Positions 4,548-6,211 of a stretch of DNA of 32,000 nucleotides are shown here, one piece after another (positions within the stretch are counted from its first letter, which is position 1; the number at the start of each line of letters is the position of its first letter). The translations under genes were made by a program, and so were the position numbers. The stretch lies in the NCBI RefSeq assembly GCF_003010495.1, contig NZ_CP027570.1, forward strand, positions 2,010,001-2,042,000. The letters are read 5' to 3'. The notes under the pieces are model-generated. The model was not told the origin of the DNA. It did not search any database and worked only from the letters and a program-made list of their open reading frames with translations. The stretch comes from Megasphaera elsdenii DSM 20460. GTDB lineage: Bacteria; Bacillota; Negativicutes; Veillonellales; Megasphaeraceae.

Positions 4548-4919
4548 ATGGAGAATTTCACAACAGTTGTAGAGGCACTTATTTTAATTTGTACGGCATT
4601 GGGTGGCTTCCGAGAGGCCATCCTCAAGCCGTATTTTTCACACCGGGACAAGGAACGGGAATGGAAAGAAAAATATGACCAAGTTATTGAAGAAAGGGAG
4701 AATGAAAGGGAAGAACGTCAAAAAGAACGAGCTAAGATGCTGGGGGATAAGTACGACCAGCTCGTACAGAGCATCTCTAATCTAAGCAACTTAGTAAACC
4801 GTCTTGGTGCGGAACAGCAACAGATGGCCCTTGACGAGGCCCGGTTCCACGAACGTTTCGAGTCTGTAGAACGGAGGTTGGATGATATTCAAAAAAGGGT
4901 TGACTCGTATAGTCAGTAG
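4548..4919 (+). CDS. Membrane-anchored coiled-coil protein, first gene of the lysis cassette (i-spanin-like or holin-accessory architecture)
   Basis: SD-like AGGGGGA sits just upstream of the ATG at 4548, 10 nt after the giant ORF stop. N-terminal hydrophobic segment TTVVEALILICTALGGF is followed by a highly charged E/R/K-rich helical region. It lies directly upstream of the holin-like and muramidase genes. Confidence 0.6.
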   Translation: MENFTTVVEALILICTALGGFREAILKPYFSHRDKEREWKEKYDQVIEERENEREERQKERAKMLGDKYDQLVQSISNLSNLVNRLGAEQQQMALDEARFHERFESVERRLDDIQKRVDSYSQ

Positions 4920-5214
4920 TACTTTCGTAGCGATGAAGTCCAATATGTCGTACATCTGTATGGCATTTGGGCTTCTTGCCGCTTTTACAGTTCTTTTATC
5001 TTGGTTATATGGTTATTGGTCTAACGGCCTGTGGGGGACACATTTTGAGATTAACTCATGCTGGCAAGGAATTTCTGCTTGTGGCATGGGGCTGGTCGGT
5101 CTGTTTAAGTGGTTAGTAGATTCCACAAAGAATAGCCCGTCCGGTGAATATCCAATTCCTCCCCGGCCAGTAGATAATTCTAAGAATAGGAGTGATGTTG
5201 AATCAAAGGTGTAG
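4882..5214 (+). CDS. Two-TMD holin-like membrane protein (alternative starts at 4933 and 4945)
   Basis: Two hydrophobic helices (YICMAFGLLAAFTVLLSWLYGYW; GISACGMGLVGLFKWLV). GGAGG lies 4 nt upstream of the ATG at 4882. The internal MKSNM resembles a holin dual-start motif. The Pro-rich, charged C-terminal tail (PSGEYPIPPRPVDNSKNRSDVESKV) ends 10 nt past the first GH25-frame codon. Confidence 0.55.
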   Translation: MIFKKGLTRIVSSTFVAMKSNMSYICMAFGLLAAFTVLLSWLYGYWSNGLWGTHFEINSCWQGISACGMGLVGLFKWLVDSTKNSPSGEYPIPPRPVDNSKNRSDVESKV

Positions 5215-5768
5215 ATATTTCTGAAAATCAGAGTTTTATTGATTGGGACGCATTGCAAGAGGCTGGTGTTGAGTTTGTCATTGTTCGTGCTGGCTACGGT
5301 CAGGGACATGAAGATTCCAAGTTTAAGGAATATGCCACGGAAGCTCTTAACCGAGGCTTCAAAGTCGGAGCATATTGGTTCAGTTATGCACTGGACGTAG
5401 ACCAAGCTCGAAAGGAAGGGGAATACTGCCGTGACATTATCGGGAATTGGGGAGGCTTGCTTGAACTTCCTGTCTTCTTTGACCAAGAGTATAGTAGCTG
5501 GCGTGAAAATAATGGTTGGGATTCTGATTCTGCCACTGCTATGTGCGATGCTTTTGCTGATGCTCTCAATCTTAATACCGGTGTTTATGCTAACTATGAT
5601 TGGTTTACTAATGTCTTGGATTATGATTACTTGAAAGGGAAATATTCTATCTGGCTGGCTCAGTACGACAACTCCCCGTCCCTTGAATGTGATATCTGGC
5701 AGTACAGCGACTCGGAACAGTATGGGGCAAATCAGTTAGATTCCAATATTTCTTATATGGAGGCATGA
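5202..5768 (+). CDS. GH25-family muramidase (endolysin). Start codon unresolved: the homologous region begins at ATC 5202, and the first canonical start is TTG 5253.
   Basis: The frame translates as IKGVDISENQSFIDWDALQEAGVEFVIVRAGYG..., the classic GH25 N-terminus (GxDxS with the catalytic Asp, then FVIxRxGYG). This begins immediately after in-frame TGA 5199-5201. No ATG/GTG/TTG occurs before 5253. AGGAG at 5188-5192 lies 9 nt upstream of ATC 5202. Stop TGA 5766-5768 overlaps the next start (ATGA). Confidence 0.8.
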   Translation: MKGVDISENQSFIDWDALQEAGVEFVIVRAGYGQGHEDSKFKEYATEALNRGFKVGAYWFSYALDVDQARKEGEYCRDIIGNWGGLLELPVFFDQEYSSWRENNGWDSDSATAMCDAFADALNLNTGVYANYDWFTNVLDYDYLKGKYSIWLAQYDNSPSLECDIWQYSDSEQYGANQLDSNISYMEA

Positions 5769-6211
5769 TGTGGAATCCAATAAAAACCTTTTCCGTTGGG
5801 TTTTGCTTAGTATTGTTGCCGTTCTTTGTGTCATTCTCTTTTGCGTCTTCCACGACAGCCGAAGTGCCGCAGACTCAGACGGTGCAGATGTCACTCGAAC
5901 AATACAACAGGTTAAAGACGAAAGTAGCACAGCTCGAACTGAACTTGACAACACTCGAACAGAACTCCGAAACGGACAAGCAAGAGCTGACGACGCTAAA
6001 AAAACAACTGGAAGACTGCAAGACAGCAATGAGCAAAGCCGAGCAGTCATCGAAGACAGCCAGCGACTCCTTGGAGAAATTAGAGACGAATTTGCAGATA
6101 TTGACAGAACAAACGGAATCACTGAAACACAAACTGGAAATCAAGAACCGGCAGAATAAGATAGCTTGGATTGTAGCGGGAACAGCTATCCTGTGCGCTG
6201 CTTCAAAATAG
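5765..6211 (+). CDS. Signal/TM - leucine-heptad coiled coil - C-terminal TMD protein; spanin-equivalent candidate at the end of the lysis cassette
   Basis: Its ATG overlaps the endolysin stop (gcATGAtg), suggesting translational coupling. It has an N-terminal hydrophobic segment FSVGFCLVLLPFFVSFSFA, heptad-like leucines (LEQYNRLKTKVAQLELNLTTLEQ...LEKLETNLQILTEQTESLKHKLEI), and a C-terminal TMD IAWIVAGTAILCAA. The overlapping frame 5770-6159 is also open but is rich in CGA codons. Confidence 0.55.
   Translation: MMWNPIKTFSVGFCLVLLPFFVSFSFASSTTAEVPQTQTVQMSLEQYNRLKTKVAQLELNLTTLEQNSETDKQELTTLKKQLEDCKTAMSKAEQSSKTASDSLEKLETNLQILTEQTESLKHKLEIKNRQNKIAWIVAGTAILCAASK

Follow-up and report, generated by a model that had tools for sequence, protein, structure and literature searches.

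A prophage GH25 endolysin of Megasphaera elsdenii that lacks a canonical start codon and is probably initiated at AUC

Results

The holin-lysin junction of a prophage lysis cassette

The complete genome of Megasphaera elsdenii DSM 20460 (2.48 Mb, 52.8% G+C) carries a prophage lysis cassette in four parts at positions 4548-6211 of the window, by which we mean the whole stretch of 32,000 nucleotides analysed here (G000:C1:2010001-2042000). We studied the junction between two of its genes, at which all features described are on the plus strand. The first gene encodes a holin-like membrane protein of 110 residues (4882-5214; the holin below). The second encodes a GH25 muramidase, or endolysin, of 188 codons plus stop (5202-5768; the lysin below), and its reading frame opens without a canonical start codon.

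The GH25 frame reads TAG(5187) GAG TGA(5193) TGT TGA(5199) ATC(5202) AAA GGT GTA GAT. Three in-frame stops lie upstream (TAG 5187-5189, TGA 5193-5195 and TGA 5199-5201), and the ATC at 5202-5204, the proposed near-cognate initiation codon, opens the frame, with the N-terminus IKGVDISENQSFIDWDA... The earliest ATG, GTG or TTG of this frame is TTG 5253. A Shine-Dalgarno (SD) sequence, AGGAG (5188-5192), is located 9 nt upstream of ATC 5202 and can be extended as AGGAG-TGAT (5188-5196) against the 3' end of the host 16S rRNA. The holin open reading frame (ORF) ends GAA TCA AAG GTG TAG(5212). Its stop codon (TAG 5212-5214), a proposed site of termination-coupled re-initiation, lies 8 nt past the ATC codon, and the two genes overlap by 13 nt, which involves the last four holin codons. 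The holin ORF contains A_AAG, a possible -1 slip site, at 5205-5208, so that the GH25 frame is -1 relative to the holin. An earlier interpretation made from the letters and the ORF list, called the sequence-only reading below, had drawn attention to the missing start before TTG 5253, the stops at 5187, 5193 and 5199, the AGGAG and the A_AAG; this observation is confirmed, with all of its coordinates.

The lysin is a GH25 endolysin

Residues 4-173 encoded by 5202-5768 match Pfam PF01183 (E 1.3e-28) on profile positions 1-176 of 180, and the protein also matches PHROG endolysin families. GH25 chains in the PDB align with it from residue 1. In a 14-sequence alignment G3, D5, S7, D94 and E96 are invariant; they make up the G-x-D-x-S motif and the D-x-E pair. 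The Asp of the motif and the acid pair are catalytic in Cellosyl and Cpl-1 and are presumed to be so here. The 188-residue frame begins directly with the catalytic barrel, with no N-terminal transmembrane domain (TMD), which sets it apart from signal-anchor-release (SAR) endolysins; only in a hypothetical fusion would the lysin have a TMD. The lysin is best explained as an intact, functional prophage GH25 endolysin and a predicted muramidase.

The junction is conserved across independent assemblies

The same junction is present at the DNA level in five independent assemblies (L021, L025, L022, L023 and L026). The codon at the proposed start is ATC, as in the window, in L021 (96% amino acid identity) and L025 (98%), and ATT in L022 (72%), L023 (71%) and L026 (70%), where it is preceded by TGA TGA CGA. 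Counting the window, three assemblies have ATC and three have ATT. In the DNA of all five relatives, the interval from the upstream stop to the conserved N-terminus is free of ATG, GTG and TTG. Three metagenome contigs from different studies span the whole cassette with 24-45 substitutions and 0 insertions or deletions; their identity to the window at 5202-5204 rests on no difference at these positions among those listed, with 37 differences unlisted. The absence of a start is beyond chance or error, since it is common to independent assemblies and to a 72%-identical lineage.

The ratio of non-synonymous to synonymous substitution rates (dN/dS) of the lysin is 0.036-0.039 within the close lineage. 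Between lineages it is 0.08-0.12, with dS saturated at 1.9-3.3. Over codons 2-17, upstream of the TTG, the window and L021 differ by 4 synonymous and 0 non-synonymous changes. The whole 188-codon frame is under purifying selection. Between the two DNA-confirmed lineages, positions 5189-5238 rank with the best-conserved parts of the 890-bp holin-lysin region (27/30), and the adjoining holin tail is conserved least (12/30).

Further lineages were recognised in the protein database from their holin tails, which end in ELKG (87-89% identity to the window holin), SQLKV (76%) or EVLKV (65%). Judged from these tails, at least three more lineages would share the layout, with a start codon that is presumably ATT. 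No close relative was found in the phage GenBank set by nucleotide search (distant mode), a protein search of that set gave identities of at most 40%, and none was present among the GTDB species representatives or in an order-wide holin search.

Public gene models of the lysin are truncated. Its protein cluster at 90% identity comprises 114 proteins out of many assemblies, and almost every one is annotated with 171 residues from the TTG (5253-5255), the start in most gene callers' models. The NCBI record of this genome has a product of 183 residues from an ATT (5217-5219). All of the public models that we encountered (171, 183 and 103 residues) are truncated. Both the ATT and the TTG starts remove Asp5 of the invariant G-x-D-x-S, which agrees with the sequence-only reading that a start at TTG 5253 would delete the catalytic N-terminus. 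ATT 5217 is GTT in L026 and TTG 5253 is CTG in the distant lineage of L022 and L026, so neither database start is conserved. Gene callers, the NCBI record included, systematically truncate this endolysin with the loss of its catalytic Asp, which is relevant for lysin mining from gut and rumen Megasphaera phages.

ATC occupies the position of Met1 in related endolysins

Homologues with 45-66% identity to the lysin begin MKGIDIS, MRGIDIS or MLGIDVS, and their Met1 aligns with Ile1 of the frame. Viral, metagenome and genome collections yielded 188 distinct GH25 junctions, whose starts we screened. Four of them have no ATG, GTG or TTG between the upstream stop and the GxD, and all four come from this clade. 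The start found most often (77 cases) is an ATG that precedes the Gly of GxD by two codons, exactly where the ATC lies.

Relatives that carry both a homologous holin and a GH25 lysin provide a direct comparison. In L289-L296 the holin stop and the lysin start overlap as ATGA in CGATGAGATACGGTATTGAT (...GTA CGA TGA / ATG AGA TAC GGT ATT GAT), and in L340 they do so in AAAATGAAAGGTATTGAT (TTA AAA TGA / ATG AAA GGT ATT GAT ATA TCA). The window reads GAA TCA AAG / ATC AAA GGT GTA GAT at the same junction. Set against the relatives' ATGA, one change of the G removed the lysin ATG and the holin TGA together, and with its TGA lost the holin now stops three codons later.

The sequence-only reading had proposed initiation at ATC from the SD after an ATG-to-ATC mutation. 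This proposal is supported by the place of the ATC or ATT, which is exactly where ATG is modal among 184 relatives, by the ATGA overlap in the relatives with homologous holins, and by the conserved SD and the ATT start of a host gene described below. The sequence-only reading had also suggested a comparison with related prophages; relatives with a homologous holin have ATG at this position, and the searches described below gave no single-frame fusion of the two ORFs.

A different origin, by a 5-nt deletion from an MNQIKGVD start (ATG AAT CAA ATT AAA GGT) with TTG AAT CAA as its relic, was considered and dropped. It is refuted by the HESN-type loci (L327-L330), which read C ATG AAA GTA ATT GAC and encode a different lysin, MKVIDISYWQ. 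The holin P0054, 93% identical to that of the window, ends ...NRSDVHESN, like the HESN holins (L329/L330:1760-1830). By their sequences, lysin modules appear to have been swapped behind the same RSD/AGGAGTGAT tail.

The Shine-Dalgarno sequence and a host gene with a similar context

The stretch AGGAGTGAT is identical in both lineages despite the saturated dS, and the SD doubles as coding sequence for the conserved R-S-D in the holin tail. The host 16S rRNA ends in ...GGAUCACCUCCUUUCU, to which AGGAG is directly complementary. The TGAT could also pair with this 3' end if one rRNA base bulges.

The host infC gene (G000:C1:1448589-1449104, L299) opens straight after a TGA with AAG ACG ATT AGT AAG GAA. 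It has no canonical start; GGAGGTGA is located upstream, with 9 nt from GGAGG to the ATT. This layout shows that the host carries an essential gene, that of initiation factor 3 (IF3), with an ATT start in a context close to the AGGAG-9 nt-ATC of the lysin.

Initiation at such codons has been measured elsewhere. In Escherichia coli, AUA, AUC and AUU initiate at 1-2% of AUG, and an N-terminal Met was confirmed for AUC initiation (10.1101/063800). In Staphylococcus aureus, conserved AUU and AUA starts with extended SDs reach ~10% of AUG (PMC13009471). Translational coupling functions across negative stop-start spacing, phage lysis genes included (PMC12548453).

The holin-like protein has one strong and one marginal transmembrane segment

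The holin was assigned from the ORF list, its hydropathy and charges, and its homologues. It belongs to PHROG 28789, a family of unknown function, and more than 100 of its homologues adjoin lysins; it matches no Pfam family. TMD1 is strong (Kyte-Doolittle value over 19 residues, KD19, 2.05), and TMD2 is below 1.2 in the window and 1.38 in L022. The N-terminal tail has a charge of +4, which favours N-in, and the C-terminal tail is charged and Pro-rich. The second hydrophobic segment, CWQGISACGMGLVGLFKWLV (5060-5120, residues 60-79), is Gly/Ala/Ser-rich and weakly hydrophobic. It is followed by a DS.KNSP.G motif that is conserved across more than 100 homologues, Pectinatus ones included. The charge distribution predicts an N-in/C-in topology, as a class II holin with two TMDs would have. 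With N-in, two TMDs would place the C-terminus in the cytoplasm and one TMD would place it outside.

Discussion

Probable initiation at AUC or AUU

Combining the conservation data with the host context, we consider it probable, with some room for doubt, that the lysin is initiated at AUC or AUU (AUY) from the conserved SD, probably helped by coupling to holin translation. The ancestor would have had the usual lysis cassette, with the holin stop and the lysin start overlapping as ATGA and the SD embedded in the holin tail. A third-base substitution in the start codon (G to T or C) would have destroyed the ATG and the holin TGA at once. The holin would then have been extended by three codons, to TAG 5212, and the lysin would be made from AUY with formyl-methionine first (MKGVDIS...). 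Such initiation would be weak, at a level between a few per cent and ~10% of that from an AUG. It may be helped by the conserved AGGAG(TGAT) 9 nt upstream, by the A/U-rich unstructured start region, and by ribosomes fresh from the holin that terminate 8 nt downstream. A small amount of a -1 slip product at A_AAG may arise as a by-product.

The lysin would belong with the non-AUG-initiated genes, a known kind. As in infC and pcnB in E. coli and infC, cvfC1 and ccpN in S. aureus, a canonical start is missing from the stretch that links the upstream stop to the conserved N-terminus. The lysin also resembles the AUU-, AUA- and AUC-initiated genes in that the AUY is conserved in relatives, the SD is strong or extended and normally spaced, and a low efficiency is to be expected. 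Those genes of E. coli and S. aureus are regulators or housekeeping genes, and the lysin differs in being a gene of phage lysis. A second difference is that the lysin start is inside the upstream ORF (13-nt overlap), so that coupling probably contributes. The cassette shares with the ATGA-overlapped holin-endolysin cassettes (L289-L296, L340) its gene order, its holin and lysin families and an SD in the holin tail; it differs from them in having C or T in place of the G of ATGA, so that the lysin ATG and the holin TGA are lost and the end of the holin is shifted by 10 nt downstream.

A literature search found no endolysin described with an ATT or other non-canonical start codon. The junction would be a natural case of a phage lysis gene with a conserved AUC/AUU start, arising from one base change that also lengthened the holin. 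If the weak start is adaptive, it could be a means of tuning the endolysin:holin ratio in translation, and it may be IF3-sensitive like infC.

Several observations weigh against AUY initiation or fit other models equally well. No lineage shows a reversion to ATG or a change to ATA, which are allowed or even favoured under simple initiation. An ATG or ATA at 5202 would place a stop in the holin frame, and its avoidance is what a read-through or frameshift model expects. The end of the SD is 12 nt from A_AAG, a distance that is also right for stimulating a -1 slip. All lineages have AAA as Lys codon 2, which is compatible with initiation or frameshifting. Confirmation at the DNA level covers two lineages, with three more represented by protein tails only. 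Finally, culture RNA-seq of the species (run X17) placed only 17 reads on 4548-6211, mostly on 4548-4603. In the lysogen the lysis genes are close to silent, and this number of reads is too small for any statement about the transcript.

A possible -1 frameshift to a holin-GH25 fusion

The best surviving alternative to AUY initiation is a programmed -1 slip on A_AAG 5205-5208, with AGGAG 12 nt upstream, that would produce a holin-GH25 fusion of ~297 residues. The fusion would be a functional membrane-anchored muramidase, made alone or beside the free enzyme. We regard this as unlikely, although the site itself is well placed. Both lineages confirmed by DNA have A_AAG in the holin frame, and the five holin tail types (xSKV, xLKV, xLKG) all imply it. 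According to PMC5009743, A_AAG is the minimal bacterial -1 site, and incidental -1 slippage at the CGA_AAG of Bacillus subtilis cdd is stimulated by the SD of the gene that follows. The AGGAG falls within the stimulator range of ~10-14 nt; the same element is the SD for initiation. The junction contains only the tetramer, however, and no X_XXY_YYZ heptamer, with A_TCA_AAG or A_TTA_AAG in its place. The host has two tRNA-Lys(CUU) genes in addition to three UUU genes, and the presence of tRNA-Lys(CUU) is described as lowering the shiftiness of AAG (PMC5009743).

No conserved downstream structure favours a slip. The region folds no better than shuffled sequences (z-scores 0.07, 0.91, -1.2 and -1.3), and covariation was seen in 1/32 predicted pairs. 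A 5-bp hairpin, TCTGA-aaa-TCAGA (5220-5232), which the sequence-only reading had pointed out, is indeed present in the window, but it is strain-specific and is lost in relatives, with 5228 T>C there and in the three metagenome contigs. It was rejected as a frameshift stimulator on the grounds that it is not conserved and that its stability does not exceed that of shuffles.

Every lineage carries C or T as the last base of the start codon, where a G or an A would put a stop into the holin frame. This pattern suits a slip slightly better than initiation, but with so few independent changes it is not significant. That the AUY stands exactly at the Met1 position of the relatives is not needed by a slip. 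The predicted N-in/C-in topology would keep a fused lysin cytoplasmic; TMD2 being weakly hydrophobic, a C-out topology is possible, and with TMD2 marginal the topology is less decisive against a fusion. A natural holin-endolysin fusion occurs in Clostridium sporogenes (PMC9527704). A search for in-frame fusions of holin and lysin gave none among the close lysin relatives of up to 329 residues and none among proteins of 194-2000 residues related to the holin, the latter being weak evidence. The sequence-only reading had offered the slip as a route to a membrane-tethered, SAR-like muramidase. The distance from the SD is stimulatory, yet the tetramer, the lack of structure, the tRNA-Lys(CUU) and the absence of a fused homologue leave this part of it without positive support, and its interpretation as a whole is partly supported.

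A stronger version, in which the loss of the ATG is itself a recoding device, seems to us doubtful to a slightly greater degree. An AGGAG-driven programmed -1 slip would then set a membrane-anchored holin-endolysin in fixed ratio to free holin, and C or T would be kept since G or A closes the holin. The A_AAG near the end of the upstream gene, with the downstream SD about a dozen bases upstream, resembles the CGA_AAG of B. subtilis cdd (Mejlhede et al. 1999, via PMC5009743). The cdd product is a short extension and not an enzyme fusion; the present host has tRNA-Lys(CUU), and the slip is hypothetical here. The hypothetical slip product is also like the TpeE family of C. sporogenes in having a holin C-terminus joined to an endolysin. 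The C. sporogenes fusion differs in being encoded in a single frame and in having a holin of another family, with one TMD plus an amphipathic helix (PMC9527704). A literature search found no report of frameshifting that joins a holin to an endolysin, and if the -1 route is used, it would give the first frameshift-made holin-endolysin fusion known to us.

Other start sites

It is very unlikely that translation starts downstream, at ATT 5217 or TTG 5253, to give an N-terminally shortened protein. The existing database models use these codons, and AAAGG lies 7 nt before ATT 5217. However, both starts cost the protein Asp5, both codons are replaced in relatives as described above, and codons 2-17 are under purifying selection.

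Even less credible is initiation in the third frame at ATG 5195 or TTG 5198, followed by a +1 shift near AAT-CAA (AAT-TAA in L022). The third frame, which the sequence-only reading had missed, holds a mini-ORF of 9 codons (ATG TTG AAT CAA ... TGA, 5195-5224) encoding MLNQRCRYF*. The stretch AGGAGTGATG is conserved in both lineages, and in L022 the mini-ORF ends in a TAA exactly over ATT AAA. However, ATG 5195 is merely 2 nt from AGGAG, TTG 5198 is ACG in L022, and tRNA-Asn would be unable to re-pair on AUC or AUU. The codons at the shift site differ (TTG AAT CAA versus ACG AAT TAA), and in the absence of a conserved shift site we rejected this route. The mini-ORF has only 3 codons in the L022 lineage and is not a conserved coding unit.

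A sequencing or assembly error, or the decaying pseudogene of a defective prophage, both of which the sequence-only reading had allowed for, is a negligible prospect: the near silence of the cassette in culture RNA-seq would suit it, but the same junction without indels in many independent assemblies and in metagenome contigs, and a dN/dS of 0.04-0.12 over saturated dS with the N-terminal codons included, rule it out and show that the region is not degraded.

Flanking genes of the cassette

The cassette begins with a gene for a TMD-plus-coiled-coil protein (4548-4919). Its last gene, at 5765-6211 (plus strand; from the sequence and the ORF list), overlaps the lysin stop as ATGA (ATG 5765, ATG 5768). 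The protein has a signal-like N-terminal end, a coiled coil and a C-terminal TMD, and it is a spanin-like candidate for a diderm Firmicute host.

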